Positions 7,446-14,644 of a stretch of DNA of 20,319 nucleotides are shown here, piece by piece. How positions within the stretch are numbered: the stretch's first letter is position 1; each line of letters starts with the position of its first letter. Under the pieces are notes generated by a model that did not search any database, had not been told where the DNA came from, and saw only the letters and a program-made list of their open reading frames with translations. The translations under genes and the position numbers were made by a program. The stretch comes from a virus (taxonomy: Duplodnaviria; Heunggongvirae; Uroviricota; Caudoviricetes). The stretch lies in the IMG/VR virus record IMGVR_UViG_2651869781_000004. One strand, given 5' to 3'.

Positions 7446-7811
7446 ATGACTGAACGCATAGAATTTGTTTTGCCTTACCCGCCAACGGTGAACACTTACT
7501 GGCGACGTCGTGGCAGCACATATTTTGTATCAAAAGCCGGTGAGCGTTATCGCCGTGATGTGGCGCTTATTGTTCGCCAGCAGCGGCTGAAATTAAACCT
7601 GTCCGGAAGGCTGGCGATAAAGATTATTGCAGAGCCACCGGATAAACGTCGTCGTGACCTGGACAATATCCTGAAAGCACCACTGGATGCGCTGACGCAT
7701 GCCGGACTTCTCATAGACGACGAGCAGTTTGATGAAATCAATATTGTGCGCGGTCAGCGCGTTCCTGGGGGACGGCTGGGCGTGAAGATTTACAAAATTG
7801 AGAGTGAGTGA
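7446..7811 (+). CDS. rusA: Holliday-junction resolvase RusA
   Basis: 121 aa; LPYPPTVNTYWRRRG...PPDKRRRDLDNILKAPLDALTHAGLLIDDEQ matches the RusA family motif (RRRDLDN). Start adjoins the previous stop. Confidence 0.85.
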   Translation: MTERIEFVLPYPPTVNTYWRRRGSTYFVSKAGERYRRDVALIVRQQRLKLNLSGRLAIKIIAEPPDKRRRDLDNILKAPLDALTHAGLLIDDEQFDEINIVRGQRVPGGRLGVKIYKIESE

Positions 7812-7819
7812 TCGTAAAT

Positions 7820-8362
7820 ATGATATACCCGGAAATTACAGGCAAAAGCGGCGAGCATTTACGTCTAAAAACGCTGGAAGCCGTCTGGATCCAGGGGAAA
7901 TTACGGATGTGGGGGCGTTGGTCGTATATAGGTGGTGGCAAACCAGGAAATATGTTCAATCAGTTGCTGGCATCCAAAAAACTGACAAAAACCGCAATCA
8001 ATGAAGCCCTGCGTAGAATCAGGGAGTCAGGGATTGATAAACCAGAGCTGGAAGCATTCTTGCGAGAGATGATCGCTGGCAGACAGAAGAGCTGGTTGTC
8101 TCACTGTACTGATGCAGAGGCGTTACGCATTGATGGGGTGATAAGTAAAGCGCTTGCACGTTATCCTGGATTGATTGATATCCTGCGGCAAAGGTACGAA
8201 GGGCGGGGGATGAGTAAACGCAAAATGGCTGAATTGTTGAATGAGGTGCACCCGGAATGGTGTTTTAGTACATGCGAAAAGCGAATTGCTAATTGGTTGG
8301 CTGTTGCTGAATATGCGCTATACATCCCTATGCGAGAATCGTTTGCTCAAAAAATGTCTTGA
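7820..8362 (+). CDS. Putative late-gene antitermination protein (Q-like), assigned by position
   Basis: Lies between rusA and a strong intrinsic terminator that precedes the late genes, which is the canonical Q position. The sequence does not resemble lambda Q. Start ambiguous (GTG 7808 overlapping the rusA stop, or ATG 7820). Confidence 0.45.
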   Translation: MIYPEITGKSGEHLRLKTLEAVWIQGKLRMWGRWSYIGGGKPGNMFNQLLASKKLTKTAINEALRRIRESGIDKPELEAFLREMIAGRQKSWLSHCTDAEALRIDGVISKALARYPGLIDILRQRYEGRGMSKRKMAELLNEVHPEWCFSTCEKRIANWLAVAEYALYIPMRESFAQKMS

Positions 8363-8941: not shown

Positions 8942-9991
8942 ATGATTAATACTGTAAAAATATCCAGTTGTGAGTTAATCAACGCTGATTGCCTGGAATT
9001 TATCCAGACCTTACCGGAAAACTCTGTCGATCTGATAGTCACAGACCCGCCATACTTTAAAGTGAAGCCCGAGGGCTGGGATAACCAGTGGGAGGGCGAC
9101 GATGATTACCTGAAATGGCTGGACCAGTGTCTGGCGCAGTTCTGGCGGGTACTGAAGCCTGCCGGAAGTCTTTACCTGTTCTGTGGTCATCGCCTGGCAT
9201 CTGACACCGAAATCATGATGCGTGAGCGCTTTAATGTGCTGAACCACATTATCTGGGCGAAGCCGTCCGGACGCTGGAACGGGTGCAATAAGGAAAGTCT
9301 GCGGGCGTATTTTCCGGCAACAGAGCGCATTCTGTTTGCAGAACATTATCAGGGACCGTATCGCCCGAAAGATGATGGCTATGTGGCACAGGGGCGCGAG
9401 CTAAAACAGCACGTCATGGCCCCGCTGATTTCTTACTTTCGTGATGCGCGTAAATCACTGGGAATAACGTCAAAACAGATAGCGGAAGCCACCGGAAAGA
9501 AAAACATGGCTTCGCACTGGTTTGGTACCAGTCAGTGGCAGTTACCGAACGAGGGTAATTACAACAAATTGCAGGCGTTGTTTGCGCGTGTTGCGGCAGA
9601 AAAACATCAGCGCGGGGAACTGGAAAAGCCACACCACCAGCTGGTCAGCACATACAGTGAGCTGAACCGGCAGTATACGGAACTGCTGAGTGAATATAAA
9701 AATTTGCGGCGGTATTTCGGTGTGACGGCGCAGGTTCCGTACACCGATGTCTGGACGCATAAACCGGTGCAGTACTATCCAGGGAAACATCCGTGCGAAA
9801 AACCGGCAGAAATGCTGCAGCAGATAATCAACGCGAGCAGTCGTCCGGGAGACCTGGTTGCAGATTTTTTTATGGGTTCAGGTTCAACGGTAAAAGCGGC
9901 GATGGCACTGGGGCGTTGTGCGATTGGTGTTGAGCTGGAGACAGGACGTTTTGAACAGACAGTCAGGGAAGTTCAGGATTTAATCGTTTGA
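8942..9991 (+). CDS. DNA N6-adenine/N4-cytosine methyltransferase (beta-class amino-MTase)
   Basis: Catalytic DPPY motif near the N-terminus (VTDPPYF) and AdoMet-binding FxGxG near the C-terminus (DFFMGSGSTVKAA); this motif order is typical of beta-class MTases. No adjacent restriction endonuclease gene seen. Confidence 0.85.
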   Translation: MINTVKISSCELINADCLEFIQTLPENSVDLIVTDPPYFKVKPEGWDNQWEGDDDYLKWLDQCLAQFWRVLKPAGSLYLFCGHRLASDTEIMMRERFNVLNHIIWAKPSGRWNGCNKESLRAYFPATERILFAEHYQGPYRPKDDGYVAQGRELKQHVMAPLISYFRDARKSLGITSKQIAEATGKKNMASHWFGTSQWQLPNEGNYNKLQALFARVAAEKHQRGELEKPHHQLVSTYSELNRQYTELLSEYKNLRRYFGVTAQVPYTDVWTHKPVQYYPGKHPCEKPAEMLQQIINASSRPGDLVADFFMGSGSTVKAAMALGRCAIGVELETGRFEQTVREVQDLIV

Positions 9992-10040: not shown

Positions 10041-10116
10041 GGCCCTTTAGCTCAGTGGTGAGAGCGAGCGACTCATAATCGCCAGGTCGCTGGTTCAAAT
10101 CCAGCAAGGGCCACCA
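10041..10116 (+). tRNA. ileZ: tRNA-Ile2 (anticodon CAU, lysidine type), ileZ-like
   Basis: 76 nt with CCA end. 7-bp acceptor stem GGCCCTT/AAGGGCC, D-arm GCTC...GAGC, anticodon loop CTCATAA, T-loop GGTTCAAATCC. Closely resembles E. coli ileX. Confidence 0.85.
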
Positions 10117-10213: not shown

Positions 10214-10290
10214 GCGTTGTTAGCTCAGCCGGACAGAGCAATTGCCTTCTAAGCAATCGGTCACTGGTTCGAATCCAGTACAACGCGCCA
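10214..10290 (+). tRNA. argO: tRNA-Arg (anticodon UCU), argO-like
   Basis: 77 nt with CCA. Acceptor GCGTTGT/ACAACGC, anticodon loop CTTCTAA (UCU), T-loop GGTTCGAATCC. Confidence 0.85.
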
Positions 10291-10427
10291 TATTCATTCT
10301 TCCAGATTTCTTCCGGCAGAGCCTTATACTGGAATATACCTGGCTCAGTATATTGTTGAAAATATTATATGTTTGTCAAAAATAAAAGTTCTGTTAAGTA
10401 TTGATTGAGTGTTTGTTATACGGTCTA

Positions 10428-10754
10428 ATGATTTTTTCAGTATTAAATATTTATCATTCATATGGTGTGGGTAGAGTGAATATTGATGAGGCGTCGGGGT
10501 GTTTCATCCTTAGGCAGCGTATTGATATAGTCAATGCAGCACGAGCAAAGGCCTTCAGCCGTTTGACAGTTTTGTTCTGTACTCCTGATCGTCTTTTGGG
10601 AAGAGACGTTATTATTCTGAATAGTGATGCTATACAGAGGGTTTGCGATGAGTTCATGGTTGCTAATTCAGAATTATTTGCTCTTGTTCAGGAGTACAAC
10701 AGAATAGCCAGGACCTGTGGTATGGATGAACTTCGGATTACTCATCTGGGGTAG
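10428..10754 (+). CDS. Hypothetical protein in the stx-equivalent slot (weakly supported)
   Basis: ORF-track frame 10401..10754 (TTG); first ATG at 10428. No clear SD, low GC, no signal peptide, no recognisable family. Confidence 0.3.
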   Translation: MIFSVLNIYHSYGVGRVNIDEASGCFILRQRIDIVNAARAKAFSRLTVLFCTPDRLLGRDVIILNSDAIQRVCDEFMVANSELFALVQEYNRIARTCGMDELRITHLG

Positions 10755-11146
10755 ATACATATCTGGATTATCACCTGTTACGGTAAAAAGTGATTGCTTA
10801 CTGTTTTTGTGAATGGCATTGCAGCAGCCGGATAATGTCAGTGCTGGCTGACGGTGTGCTGGTGGCGGGTGTGGTGGTTGTTGCTTTCCCGTTGCTGAAA
10901 AAGAAAACGCCAGACTGTTAGCCGGGTATCAGTTAGCGGGAGAAATTTTTAAATACTTCACAATTCAGGCGGTTGACTGTTGTCTGGTTTGCGGGGAGTT
11001 TGTTAAAAGAAACTGGCATGGTGAATCCCCCTGTGCGGAGGGGCAATCAGCGAGTAGGTATATGGGATAATCGCGGATTCAGGTGCTGGTACTGAATTCA
11101 CCGGGAGGCACCCGGCACCATGCAATGGCACATAGCGCCACTCTCC

Positions 11147-11172
11147 AGCCCCTCTCCGGAGGGGCTGTTTAT
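11147..11172 (+). terminator. Putative intrinsic terminator (agcccctc-tccg-gaggggct followed by a T-rich tract)
   Basis: 8-bp GC-rich stem with tetraloop followed by GTTTAT. Lies between the two convergent cargo ORFs. Confidence 0.4.
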
Positions 11173-11201
11173 ATTGATTTTGTCAGATGTGAGTAAACTC
11201 C

Positions 11202-11537
11202 TTATGGACTTTGTTGTTTTAGTCCATAAGGACATATTTGCAGAGTGCAACGGTTATTAAAGCATTCATTCAATACGTTATCTGTATTTGTAGGGCATTC
11301 CTGGCTGTTTTTGATTAAATTCCAGAATGTTTTATTGAATGGTACTACGTTGTAAATGGTTACAGGTAGCACTTTGTTATTGAGCATGATGCCTGTGTGA
11401 GTCAGTGTAAATATACTTTCAGGAGGTAAGAAAGCATCCGATTGATACCAGATTATTAATTTTATTTTACTCCATATGACTGAAAAAGATATTCCGCATG
11501 ATGGCTGGATAACTGTATCAATCACAATCCACTTCAT
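11202..11537 (-). CDS. Hypothetical protein (111 aa) in the stx-equivalent slot, opposite strand
   Basis: Minus-strand ORF with a strong SD (AAGGAAAG 5 nt before the ATG). Six Cys residues, several in the C-terminal third ([24 protein letters not shown]). A perfect 10-bp inverted repeat (11201-11210 / 11221-11230) overlaps its stop. No family recognised. Confidence 0.45.
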
Positions 11538-11796
11538 TTACTTTCCTTGTTTATGCCTTGCTGGTGATGTTCTGAAAAGTATAAATGATATTTTTGAATT
11601 AAACCATAGAGCAGAATTATTTTTCTGATGTTGTTTATTGTTTATTTAAATACAGGGTGGTTTATATCTCGTCTTGTAGTTTATCCATGCATATCTGCTT
11701 GATAATCAGGTTTTTATTTAAGGTATGGTTTTGTGTTTTTTCTGTATTACATGTCAGGTATTTTAAAGAATTATTTTTCAGATGGTGGAAAGAACC

Positions 11797-13647
11797 ATGG
11801 CATTTAAACACTATGATGTTGTCAGGGCGGCGTCGCCGTCAGATCTTGCGGAAAAGCTGACACATAAACTGAAAGAGGGCTGGCAGCCGTTTGGTAGTCC
11901 GGTGGCCATAACCCCTTATACTCTGATGCAGGCGATTACAGCAGAAGGTGATGTGGTGGTCAGTGGTGCAACTGAGCCGGATTGGTACTACGTCATCGTA
12001 CTGGCCGGGCAGTCCAATGCCATGGCTTACGGTGAAGGGCTTCCGCTGCCGGATTCATACGATGCTCCGGATCCGCGCATTAAACAGCTGGCGCGCCGCA
12101 GTACAGTGACGCCGGGTGGGGCTGCCTGCAGATATAACGATATTATTCCGGCCGACCACTGCCTGCATGATGTGCAGGATATGAGTACGCTGAATCATCC
12201 GAAGGCAGACCTGAGCAAAGGGCAGTACGGCTGTGTCGGCCAGGGCTTACATATTGCCAAAAAACTGCTTCCGTATATCCCGAATAACGCGGGGATCCTG
12301 CTGGTACCATGCTGTCGTGGTGGTTCGGCATTCACCCAGGGCACGGAGGGGACATTCAGCGAGTCCACGGGGGCCAGTCAGGATTCGGCTCGCTGGGGAG
12401 TGGGTAAGCCGTTATATCAGGATCTGCTTTTCCGCACGAAGGCAGCATTGCAGAAAAACCCGAAAAACGTTTTGCTGGCGATATGCTGGATGCAGGGGGA
12501 ATTCGATATGACGAATGCCAGTTACGCCCAGCAGCCAGCAGCATTTCTTGCAATGGTACAGCAGTTCCGTGCTGACTTTGCCGGGCTGGCGGCGCAGTGT
12601 CACGGTGGAAGTCCGGCATCAGTCCCCTGGATTTGTGGCGACACGACATACGCGTGGAAACAAGAACACGGTACGCAATATGAAGTGGTATATGGTGCAT
12701 ATAAAGGTAAAGAATCCCAGCAGATTTATTTTGTTCCCTTTATGACCGATGGTAGCGGAGTTAATACACCGACAAACAACCCGTCAGAAGATCCTGATAT
12801 TGCCGGGTCTGGTTATTACGGTTCGGCATCCCGAACGAACAAAAACTGGGTATCATCAAATCGCCCGACGCATTTCAGCTCATGGGCGCGTCGTGGCATT
12901 ATTCCCGATCGTATGGCAACTGCTATTCTGAACGTAGCCGGTCGCACCTTAGCCTTCATTAGTGGTAAGGCACCGGAAATCAAACCCTCGCCCGGCGGCG
13001 ACACGCCATCGGGGCCGTCTGAAGATGCATCCGTACGCACAATCTCCCTGTTGCCGACAGCCGGAGATGCTGCTGCGCAGGGCTGGAGCATTAAGAATGG
13101 CGGAATTCAGTTGTCAGATGGTGTATTTAAGATCACCAAGCAGAGCAATAAAACCTGGTCCCTGATGCATCCGGTGGATGACGCAATTACCCTGCTGACA
13201 CAGGGCGGCAGACTGACCTGTAAGTTCCGCCTCTCAGGCGCACTGACCAACAATCAGTTCGGGCTGGGGATTTATCTGTATACGGACGCTCCCGTTCCTG
13301 ATGATGTGGCGATGACGGGTACTGGTAATCCGTTCCTGATGTCTTACTTCACTCAGACCACTGACGGCAGAGTGAATCTGATGCATCACAGGAAAGCCGG
13401 AAACACGAAGCTGGGGGAGTTCGGCGATAACGGTAACGACTGGCAGACGCTGGAGCTGGTGTTCACCGCCGGCAGTGCCACGGTTACTCCGAAACTGAAT
13501 GGAGTGGCTGGCCCGGCATTCCAGGTTATAAAAGACAGTCTGACACTGGGACTGAATGCGCTGACGCTGACGGATGTTACAAAAAATGCAGCGTATGGCG
13601 TTGAGATAGAAAGTCTGGTGCTGGAGATAAATGCACCGGCAGCATAA
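11797..13647 (+). CDS. nanS-p: Sialate (9-O-acetyl-Neu5Ac) O-acetylesterase, NanS-p-like
   Basis: 616 aa. SGNH/SASA esterase motif GQSN (VLAGQSNAMAYGEG) after a DUF1737-type N-terminus, in the position immediately upstream of the lysis cassette that NanS-p occupies in Stx phages. ATG 11797 preferred (GGTGGAAAG upstream) over the track start 11782. Confidence 0.75.
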   Translation: MAFKHYDVVRAASPSDLAEKLTHKLKEGWQPFGSPVAITPYTLMQAITAEGDVVVSGATEPDWYYVIVLAGQSNAMAYGEGLPLPDSYDAPDPRIKQLARRSTVTPGGAACRYNDIIPADHCLHDVQDMSTLNHPKADLSKGQYGCVGQGLHIAKKLLPYIPNNAGILLVPCCRGGSAFTQGTEGTFSESTGASQDSARWGVGKPLYQDLLFRTKAALQKNPKNVLLAICWMQGEFDMTNASYAQQPAAFLAMVQQFRADFAGLAAQCHGGSPASVPWICGDTTYAWKQEHGTQYEVVYGAYKGKESQQIYFVPFMTDGSGVNTPTNNPSEDPDIAGSGYYGSASRTNKNWVSSNRPTHFSSWARRGIIPDRMATAILNVAGRTLAFISGKAPEIKPSPGGDTPSGPSEDASVRTISLLPTAGDAAAQGWSIKNGGIQLSDGVFKITKQSNKTWSLMHPVDDAITLLTQGGRLTCKFRLSGALTNNQFGLGIYLYTDAPVPDDVAMTGTGNPFLMSYFTQTTDGRVNLMHHRKAGNTKLGEFGDNGNDWQTLELVFTAGSATVTPKLNGVAGPAFQVIKDSLTLGLNALTLTDVTKNAAYGVEIESLVLEINAPAA

Positions 13648-13849
13648 TAAAAAAAGCCAGCGCCCACTCTGAAGGACGCTGGCTAAAACGGGTAGATGTA
13701 CTTCACATGATACTTATACTTGGCAGTACATTTTCTGACAGACAGTGACGGATGTTGTCAAGATATTGTGTCATTTATAACCTGAATCAGGGGTTGGCCG
13801 GAATGTTATCTGGCATTTTTAGCAGAGCCTGAATGCCATAATCACGGCT

Positions 13850-13890
13850 CCCGGCGTTGGCCGTCAGTGGGTGACACTGGCGGCTTTTTT
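13850..13890 (+). terminator. Intrinsic terminator upstream of the holin gene
   Basis: gccgtcagtg-ggtga-cactggcggc (10-bp stem, one mismatch) followed by TTTTTTGTTTTTCTTT. Confidence 0.55.
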
Positions 13891-13940
13891 GTTTTTCTTT
13901 ACTTTCATTTTCTGTCGGCGGTGACGGAGACATACATCAG

Positions 13941-14147
13941 ATGGAAAAAATCACAACAGGTGTGTCATACACCACGTCAGCGGTGGGGACGGGATACTGT
14001 TTACTGCAGCTGCTGGACAAAGTCTCTCCGTCCCAGTGGGTGGCAATAGGTGTGCTGGGGAGTCTGCTGTTTGGCCTGCTGACGTATCTGACAAACCTTT
14101 ATTTCAAGATTAAAGAAGATAAGCGCAAGGCTGCGAGAGGTGAATAA
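13941..14147 (+). CDS. S: Holin (S-like, Stx-phage 933W type)
   Basis: 68 aa; [68 protein letters not shown], nearly identical to the recalled holin of Stx phages. Stop overlaps the endolysin start. Confidence 0.85.
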
Positions 14148-14644
14148 TGCCTCCATCATTACGAAAAGCCGTTGCTGCTGCTATTGGTGGTGGGGCTGTT
14201 GCCATAGCGTCTGTGCTCATCACTGGTCCGAGTGGTGACGATGGCCTGGAAGGTGTCAGCTACATACCATACGAAGATATCGTTGGCGTATGGACTGTAT
14301 GTCACGGACACACCGGAAAAGACATCATGCCCGGTAAAACGTATACCGAAGCAGAATGCAAAGCCCTCCTGAATAAAGACCTTGCCACGGTCGCCAGACA
14401 AATAAACCCGTACATCAACGTCGATATACCGGAAACAACGCGCGGCGCTCTTTACTCGTTCGTTTACAACGTGGGCGCTGGCAATTTCAGAACATCGACG
14501 CTTCTTCGCAAAATAAACCAGGGCGATATCAAAGGCGCATGTGATCAGCTACGGCGCTGGACATACGCTGGCGGTAAGCAATGGAAAGGGCTGATGACTC
14601 GCCGTGAGATTGAGCGTGAAGTCTGTTTGTGGGGGCAACAATGA
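14147..14644 (+). CDS. R: SAR-endolysin (lysozyme, glycoside hydrolase family 24)
   Basis: N-terminal Gly/Ala-rich signal-anchor-release segment ([20 protein letters not shown]) followed by a T4/P22-type lysozyme core ([18 protein letters not shown]). Confidence 0.85.

Follow-up and report, generated by a model that had tools for sequence, protein, structure and literature searches.

An STnc100-family small-RNA gene adjoining a tciB remnant in the late region of a lambdoid prophage

What does a lambdoid prophage carry between two convergent cargo genes, where no long gene is apparent? This question was raised by positions 10755-11200 of a 20,319-nt stretch of viral DNA (IMG/VR virus record IMGVR_UViG_2651869781_000004, hereafter the window, i.e. 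the whole DNA analysed), which lie between the convergent open reading frames (ORFs) 10401-10754 (+) and 11202-11537 (-). A preliminary description, made from the letters alone, had noted a 28-codon hydrophobic mini-ORF and three hairpins in this stretch, and had proposed either a small-RNA or peptide locus or an array of terminators. The mini-ORF, the hairpins and the convergent flanking ORFs were all present where described. Our results showed that the stretch is very probably an STnc100-family RNA gene adjoining a remnant of the tciB gene. The locus belongs to a catalogued family of prophage small RNAs (sRNAs) and is not new.

The Rfam family RF02076 (STnc100) matched positions 10987-11176 on the + strand over its entire length (model positions 1-206 of 206), with 132.4 bits for a cut-off of 47 (E = 2.2e-29). 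This match took in the three hairpins, namely CCCCT-N6-AGGGG at 11028-11043, CCGGG-AGGCA-CCCGG at 11101-11115 and AGCCCCTC-TCCG-GAGGGGCT at 11147-11166, the last one followed by GTTTATATTGATTTTG. The consensus STnc100 helices (closing helix, CCCCC hairpin, CCGGG-AGGCA-CCCGG hairpin and 3' terminator hairpin) were all kept, and the cmscan alignment agreed on this with the minimum-free-energy fold. Likewise, published STnc_100 primers for quantitative PCR, used for detection in outer-membrane vesicles, matched exactly at 11018-11037 and 11089-11108 (PMC12370729). A covariance model of our own recognized a single copy in the window (11013-11126, 99 bits). The small-RNA proposal was therefore borne out by the full-length STnc100 match, and relatives are documented as discrete transcripts (PMC5331693) or Hfq-bound RNAs (PMC4104026, PMC8550237). 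Family membership, fold, terminator and genomic position are established for the window copy.

Scanning IMG/VR with the 17-mer CACCGGGAGGCACCCGG (window 11099-11115) yielded at least 120 loci, whose surrounding sequences came in 119 distinct versions and had a single architecture in common (Table 1). Copies with a P2 helix of the CCCCC type are referred to here as class A, and divergent copies with a P2 of the GCGGC type as class B. The three hairpins are not independent structures: the first two are internal helices, P2 and P5, of one core, and the third one is a terminator. The CCCCT/AGGGG register of the first hairpin can form in the window copy, and only the bulged P2 register was kept across divergent classes. 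A covariation analysis, as suggested in the preliminary description, was carried out on a MAFFT alignment of 43 diverse copies and revealed compensatory changes supporting P1, P2 and P4. Shuffling never attained this covariation score (0 of 500), and in the true structure 79% of the cells were paired vs 38-47% when partners were slid by 1-3 columns. A copy from Escherichia coli K-12, found independently, displayed a compensatory U-A pair in P5. Loops and junctions (GAAU, UNNGC, YGCGG and AGGCA) were nearly invariant across very divergent copies.

Since the register of the pseudoknot varies among copies (a fixed register in the MAFFT alignment paired 43% of the cells only), this element was tested without alignment. 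At least 5 contiguous pairs could be formed in 99 of 103 unique cores, through more than a dozen different sequence versions. Matching partners paired over 6.6 bp on average vs 4.4 bp for partners taken from other copies, and stretches of 6 bp or more occurred in 80% of matching pairs vs 19% of mismatched ones; the observed mean was reached in 0 of 2000 permutations. The structure line of RF02076 printed by cmscan, a program that cannot display pseudoknots, contains neither this element nor the class-B leader copies described below. The folding energy of the stretch was unremarkable (z = -1.86; 13 of 200 shuffles folded at least as well). The above-chance signal is that of the Rfam match (E = 2e-29), of a Pfam match in the adjoining gene remnant (E = 1.7e-27) and of covariation, not that of folding energy.

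Table 1. Coordinates of features in the window, helix statistics in the alignment of 43 copies, and blocks of similarity to other phages (Stx, Shiga toxin)
Feature	Window positions	Strand	Remarks
Q-like antiterminator gene	7808-8362		DUF1133 / Phage_antitermQ
DNA methylase gene	8942-9991		
tRNA-Met(CAT)	10041-10116		ARAGORN
tRNA-Arg(TCT)	10214-10290		ARAGORN
Upstream cargo ORF, unknown function	10401-10754	+	PHROG 2873; context
43-codon ORF, DUF3927 / TciB-like	10790-10921	+	Contains the 28-codon mini-ORF; frame open from GTG at 10790
Upstream block conserved among Stx-type phages	10942-11015	+	CTCACAATTCAG-like box; -35-like TTGACT (10973-10978); putative promoter region
Structured core	11016-11123	+	P1-P2-pseudoknot-P4-P5; covariation in 43 diverse copies and pseudoknot mix-and-match control
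P1, 8-bp closing helix	11016-11023 with 11116-11123		Followed by AAU junction; 91.9% of cells paired; both-side changes in 6/8 pairs
P2, 5-bp hairpin	11027-11031 with 11037-11038 and 11040-11042		UNNGC loop; A11039 bulged; 98.6% of cells paired; both-side changes in 3/5 pairs (e.g. CG 31 / GC 9 / UA 3)
Pseudoknot	11046-11052 (5' strand) with 11084-11090 (P4 loop)		5' strand directly after P2
Variable insert			Between pseudoknot 5' strand and P4; ends in YGCGG
P4 stem	11075-11082 with 11092-11099		Loop 11084-11090; 72.8% of cells paired; both-side changes in 7/8 pairs
Single A	11100		Between P4 and P5
P5, CCGGG-AGGCA-CCCGG	11101-11105 with 11111-11115		Loop AGGCA; stacked directly on P1 3' strand; 100% of cells paired and both-side changes in 1/5 pairs, largely fixed by selection of copies with the 17-mer anchor
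Linker from core to terminator	11124-11145	+	Differs between copies; similarity to mEp460 and JLK-2012 stops at 11123/11124
Intrinsic terminator, sRNA 3' end	11146-11176	+	Stem of 9 bp (7 G-C), 4-nt loop, then GTTTATATTG; terminator scan
iraM-like anti-adapter gene	11202-11537	-	Convergent with the sRNA; NCBIfam NF007393, 162 bits; context, outside the RNA
DUF1737 and SASA sialate esterase gene	11782-13647		
Holin gene	13941-14147		
Endolysin gene	14147-14644		
Similarity to mEp460	10600-11124		99.8% identity
Similarity to JLK-2012	10822-11123		93.7% identity
Similarity to many Stx phages	about 10942-11172		Starts at about 10942-10958
Similarity to vB_EcoS-733R4 group	10958-11350		96% identity; iraM included

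Other readings of the structured segment were examined and rejected. A tRNA or tmRNA-like gene was not supported by ARAGORN, which called tRNA-Met(CAT) and tRNA-Arg upstream only and none in the stretch; the tRNA-like four-way layout of the RNA core is only a resemblance. A convergent partner RNA of the AsxR/AgvB type was not found among Rfam matches in 10300-14200, even at E <= 5, and the minus strand displayed no T-tract after the hairpin. Within the RNA, a 46-codon frame starts from an ATG at 11120, which belongs to the 3' strand of P1; most family members lack this ATG. On the opposite strand, a partial 'hypothetical protein' pseudogene annotated in RefSeq crosses the RNA core (window 11006-11131 (-), equivalent to L003 3752-3877) and is most likely a spurious call on a structured RNA.

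The idea of a terminator array proved mostly wrong, as a T-rich tract and a terminator score were encountered for 11146-11167 only, where the hairpin is followed by GUUUAUAUUGAUUUUG with an interrupted U run. Hairpins 11028-11043 and 11101-11115, i.e. P2 and P5, are followed by CAATCAGC and CACCATGC, respectively, neither of which contains a T-tract. An intrinsic terminator was present at the equivalent place in 68 of 85 unique class-A copies (80%), the median distance from P1 to its start being 26 nt; these terminators were built from 45 different hairpin sequences. Transcription modified by Q in the late region passes an intrinsic terminator (Q antitermination). The insulation of the minus-strand gene that had been attributed to these hairpins would thus apply to ordinary rightward transcription, which would stop before the convergent iraM, and not to Q-modified late transcription. 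In this E. coli subtype only, P2 and the terminator (hairpin 11147-11166) have 3' halves that are nearly the same (GGAGGGGC in P2, window 11037-11044; GGAGGGGCU in the terminator), and pairing of GGAGGGGC with the terminator's 5' half (GCCCCUCU) would be possible. This resemblance may correspond to a duplication or to a subtype-specific switch. A riboswitch-like attenuator was discarded as a feature of the family because other copies use 45 unrelated terminator hairpins.

On the 5' side, many relatives displayed a good sigma-70 promoter, TTGAC(N)-17-TAAATT, that ends 4-5 nt before P1, which points to those copies being stand-alone genes with an RNA starting at the closing helix. In the window, the conserved upstream block would contain the corresponding promoter, and rightward transcription would start at 11016 or a few bases before. 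Another promoter-like sequence, TTGTGA-18-GATAAT, occurs at 10807-10836 (+), with a -10 element that overlaps the start codon (ATG) of the mini-ORF. Were this site active, its transcript would start inside the mini-ORF and run into the sRNA. Promoter-like sites were not in excess in this region (6 vs 4.7 in shuffles).

The mini-ORF itself was correctly delimited (ATG at 10835, stop codon at 10919-10921, 28-amino-acid peptide MSVLADGVLVAGVVVVAFPLLKKKTPDC) and is part of the 43-codon ORF listed in Table 1; family similarity begins upstream of its ATG. Residues 2-43 of the longer product aligned with positions 7-53 of the 53-position Pfam profile PF13064 (DUF3927) with 95.6 bits (cut-off 25, E = 1.7e-27). 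It also matched PHROG 1470, 'TciB-like' (E = 7.8e-13), and the same ORF is labelled DUF3927 family protein in the RefSeq annotation of E. coli 042. Database homologues comprised proteins of 54-57 amino acids with two hydrophobic segments (MTVKMRLAVVALLLFLVVMV..DFSSRIMSVLADGVLVAGVVVVAFPLLKKKTPDC), the 43-amino-acid form seen here and a bare 28-amino-acid form annotated in more than 1000 contigs. Similarity to the full-length tciB of JLK-2012 begins at about 10822 ('SSRIM...') only, so that the first hydrophobic segment has been lost; 'MIAYCFCEWHC' stands here in place of the N-terminal MTVKMRLAVVALLLFLVVMV segment, and hydropathy revealed a single hydrophobic segment. The window ORF is a 5'-truncated recombination remnant of tciB. 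It has the C-terminal 32 residues ('SSRIMSVLADGVLVAGVVVVAFPLLKKK...') in common with TciB of phages P1/P7 and JLK-2012 (DUF3927 / PHROG 1470) but, unlike these systems, is devoid of both tciA and the first hydrophobic segment. As for the designation of TciB, 'inhibition of cell division or resistance to colicin', it comes from annotation and is not a tested function. Intact tciA(terB)-tciB pairs are found in JLK-2012 and P7, and in JLK-2012 the RNA core directly follows tciB. More generally, a DUF3927-like frame was found 132-202 nt upstream of the 17-mer anchor in about 25 of about 120 loci, several of these frames displaying frameshifts or stop codons.

E. coli 042 and many further complete genomes carry the entire stretch with 100% identity. 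Matches occurred in 2860 of the 5426 complete E. coli genomes, at a median of 2 places per genome and at most 12. Similarity to other phages is mosaic (Table 1). Two similarity blocks, those of mEp460 and JLK-2012, stop exactly at the 3' end of P1, which suggests that the core is a shared patch where different 3' tails and cargo genes were joined. In unrelated phages, the element was located between the Q gene and genes for a P21-type holin and lysozyme, and in HK639 the RNA core sits after tR' and tRNA genes and before the lysis genes. This place between Q and lysis genes agrees with the moron site downstream of PR' at which Tree et al. (2014) described such sRNA genes in eight Sakai prophages (PMC4104026). 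Some phage contigs carry two small-RNA genes in a row in this interval, isrI (an Rfam family of Hfq-binding RNAs of Salmonella prophages) being found just upstream of an STnc100-like element (L038 8139-8235 and L013 5465-5560). In a collection of one genome per species, all matches to our model came from Enterobacterales, except for a single 388-bp scaffold that is probably a contamination. Occurrences of the 17-mer anchor in Streptomyces and other high-GC genomes were dismissed as chance, with zero covariance-model matches.

Relatives have been described under several names. Strain EDL933 carries 11 Rfam STnc100 copies, most of them with RNA-seq reads, and STnc100_4 was confirmed by Northern blot (PMC5331693). 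EcOnc27, or sRNA103, is an Hfq-binding sRNA partly overlapping the STnc100 match downstream of stx2B (PMC12711010; PMC7873438), for which Hfq crosslinking was obtained by CRAC (crosslinking and analysis of cDNA; PMC4104026). Its overexpression raises fimZ and espA through an unclear mechanism (PMC12711010; PMC7873438). The window copy resembles this locus in its helices, its kind of terminator and its moron-region position, which falls after the late promoter and before the lysis genes, and differs from the locus of enterohaemorrhagic E. coli by its neighbours, which are the tciB remnant and iraM instead of stx2AB. PasD1 and PasD2 of the enteropathogenic E. coli strain E2348/69 are likewise prophage sRNAs near Q antiterminator genes, PasD2 lying directly upstream of a sialate esterase gene. 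They display Hfq-dependent stability and many partners in RIL-seq, a ligation- and sequencing-based mapping of RNA interactions (PMC8550237), and were reported as structurally homologous to STnc100 in a 2026 preprint (bioRxiv 10.64898/2026.05.13.724894). According to the PasD authors, the described seed regions of these sRNAs differ from those of STnc100.

Class-B copies occupied another position. Downstream of the repressor region, they immediately preceded early genes, usually without a terminator of their own; among IMG/VR contigs, the genes that followed them were Kil, Exo VIII-like and DUF2303 ones. The one case tested against Rfam (L020) fell under the cut-off of 47 (41.9 bits, E = 1e-7); our covariance model gave 83-91 bits for this class. 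In four cases the core lay 25-40 nt upstream of a start codon with no terminator between: dicB in the K-12 prophage Qin, kilR in Rac, kil in Stx phage 75/02 and terB in P7. The Qin copy, unannotated so far like those before kilR and terB, lies in front of a cell-division inhibitor gene and fills most of the 174-nt gap between dicF and dicB (L129 2053-2185, about NC_000913.3 1649452-1649584); it scored 82.9 bits with our model and contains the compensatory change in P5 (CCUGG-AGGCA-CCAGG). The Qin and Rac copies are both class-B cores, at 83-88 bits with our model, and differ from the window copy in being 5' leaders without their own terminator. In Rac-SA53 (L126 2498-2620) a DicF-like hairpin precedes the core upstream of kilR, in phage 75/02 the core is located upstream of kil (L127 2498-2631), and in P7, within the C1-controlled ban operon, it separates tRNA-Thr from terB-tciB (L125 2500-2623). 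Tandem arrays were observed as well. In some phage contigs, 3-5 units, each made of a core and a terminator and recurring about every 253 nt, lay upstream of a holin gene (L024 342-1038; L040 1702-2340; L077 4464-5451 and 8491; L014, with four Rfam matches). The plasmid pAPP145_2 of Pantoea sp. App145 contained seven cores within about 1 kb (L209 947-1991), some of them back-to-back without a terminator between.

Taken as a whole, the stretch is best explained as a mosaic segment joining a tciB remnant to a stand-alone STnc100-family sRNA gene that acts in trans with Hfq, a reading to which we assign a probability of about 0.6. It would be a 'moron' segment of a lambdoid prophage, with the Q / tRNA region on one side and the lysis genes on the other, in which 10790-10921 would represent the 3' remnant of the small membrane-protein gene tciB (DUF3927) and about 10987-11176 a stand-alone sRNA gene transcribed rightward. 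The RNA, about 160-190 nt long, would fold into the compact pseudoknotted core, continue with a short, variable and single-stranded linker, and end at the terminator. By analogy with EcOnc27/sRNA103 and PasD1/2, it would be bound by Hfq and pair in trans with host and prophage mRNAs, the conserved core providing a stable scaffold. Judging from these relatives, Hfq-dependent base pairing would have slightly better than even odds of being the main mode of action; promoter, 5' end, pairing in trans and any targets of the window copy are putative.

Several observations weigh against this explanation. The -10 element near the window copy is poor (GAGTTT) and a consensus scan called zero promoters here, so that the promoter and 5' end of this subtype remain putative and its RNA could instead be cut from a longer transcript. 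Transcription, Hfq binding and Hfq-linked RNA partners were documented for relatives and not for this copy, and what effects were reported for these relatives were weak or indirect. Conservation is highest in structured loops and junctions, with no obvious single-stranded seed. Finally, the terminator-free leader copies (dicB, kilR and terB) and the back-to-back arrays are hard to explain by an sRNA that acts purely through seed pairing.

These last points fit better with a core that serves mainly as a protein- or ligand-binding module, or as a cis-acting leader, of which the terminated sRNA would be one packaging among others. Such a module could control RNA stability, or how the toxic genes behind it are processed or translated, or else titrate a host factor. 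The nearly invariant loops and junctions of very divergent copies, the conserved pseudoknot, the class-B cores placed shortly before dicB, kilR, kil and terB, and the tandem arrays, which recall multi-site sponge RNAs, all argue in this direction. We regard it as possible but clearly the less likely view, since no protein or ligand is known to bind the core, the majority of class-A copies resemble ordinary sRNA genes running from promoter to terminator, and relatives occur with Hfq and RNA partners. Moreover, no general alternative pairing between core and terminator emerged from reading the sequences, the resemblance between P2 and the terminator being confined to one subtype. A broader version, in which STnc100 would be the visible part of a larger class of pseudoknotted RNAs from Enterobacterales prophages and plasmids, found also in arrays and in 5' leaders of cell-division-inhibitor and cargo genes, with binding or cis control as its main job and Hfq seed pairing as a secondary one, is equally tentative. 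Operon-leader positions also suggested a processive antiterminator comparable to the put RNAs of HK022 or HK639, as the element heads long operons (after the repressor region before kil/recE-like genes, or after Q before lysis genes) and put RNAs are phage-encoded structured RNAs near the start of a long operon. Yet, these are about 70 nt long with two stems and display no sequence or structure similarity to the core, which is about 108 nt long, closed by P1 and pseudoknotted. Comparison with both phages led us to reject this idea: HK022 contains neither the core motif nor a match to our model, and HK639 has an annotated putL-like RNA unlike the core together with a separate core copy in its late leader. 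The terminator found within about 26 nt in most class-A copies, the accumulation of relatives as terminated RNAs and the location of the core downstream of the DicF terminator in Qin and Rac further make an antiterminator extremely improbable.

The preliminary description had, in addition, compared the mini-ORF with type I toxins and small membrane regulators, in which case the nearby RNA might be its antitoxin or regulator. Its single hydrophobic segment followed by KKK, the frequent annotation of the 28-amino-acid form and the conservation at the amino-acid level among variants of 50-62% identity would be consistent with a functional peptide. Against it, the full-length family has 54-57 residues and two hydrophobic segments, the first of which was lost here, and frameshifted, stop-containing and in-frame-duplicated copies are common. 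No antisense or overlapping RNA partner of the ORF was seen in Rfam scans (10300-14200, even at E <= 5) and zero Rfam antitoxin families matched the stretch; the sole RNA gene lies downstream on the same strand, without overlap. Complementarity of the sRNA to the start region of the ORF was no better than for shuffled sequences (167 of 300 did as well), and transcription from the promoter-like site at 10807-10836 would begin within the ORF. The comparison with toxins and regulators thus received no support, and a functional toxin or regulator is very improbable; the preferred reading of the ORF is that of a gene remnant beside an STnc100-family sRNA gene.

The genes around the stretch (Table 1) place the window in the late region of a lambdoid, Stx-phage-like prophage. 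The upstream cargo ORF obtained zero matches in Pfam and NCBIfam searches, and the convergent gene is labelled 'anti-adapter protein IraM' in RefSeq. The tRNA at 10041-10116, tRNA-Met (CAT) according to ARAGORN, is annotated as tRNA-Ile in RefSeq for the identical gene of E. coli 042; as in Stx phages, it is probably a tRNA of the ileX/ileZ type that is read after lysidine modification. A full-length Rfam match to the sok antitoxin RNA (RF01794, 5624-5795 (+), 106.7 bits) indicates a type I toxin-antitoxin locus of the hok/sok type in the window's early part. As for the GC-rich character attributed to the stretch, it holds relative to the flanks only, since its GC content (0.491) is close to the window mean (0.487) and the flanking cargo genes, with 0.404 on one side and 0.345/0.279 on the other, are AT-rich outliers.

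For the window, these results mainly amount to a correct annotation. The stretch carries a gene remnant and a member of a known sRNA family (the STnc100 / EcOnc27 / PasD group), and neither a toxin nor a terminator system that would be new. The interest of the family lies in its abundance and its adjacency to stx2. Among Rfam sRNA families, STnc100 ranks with the most abundant ones of bacterial genomes (PMC9029176), and sequence variants within the stx2-adjacent STnc100 are among the features predictive of haemolytic uraemic syndrome (PMC12711010). The pseudoknot, the leader copies (dicB, kilR and terB) and the arrays could shift work on this family from target prediction to structure and binding partners, for which the dicF-dicB intergenic region offers a tractable K-12 model of the core.

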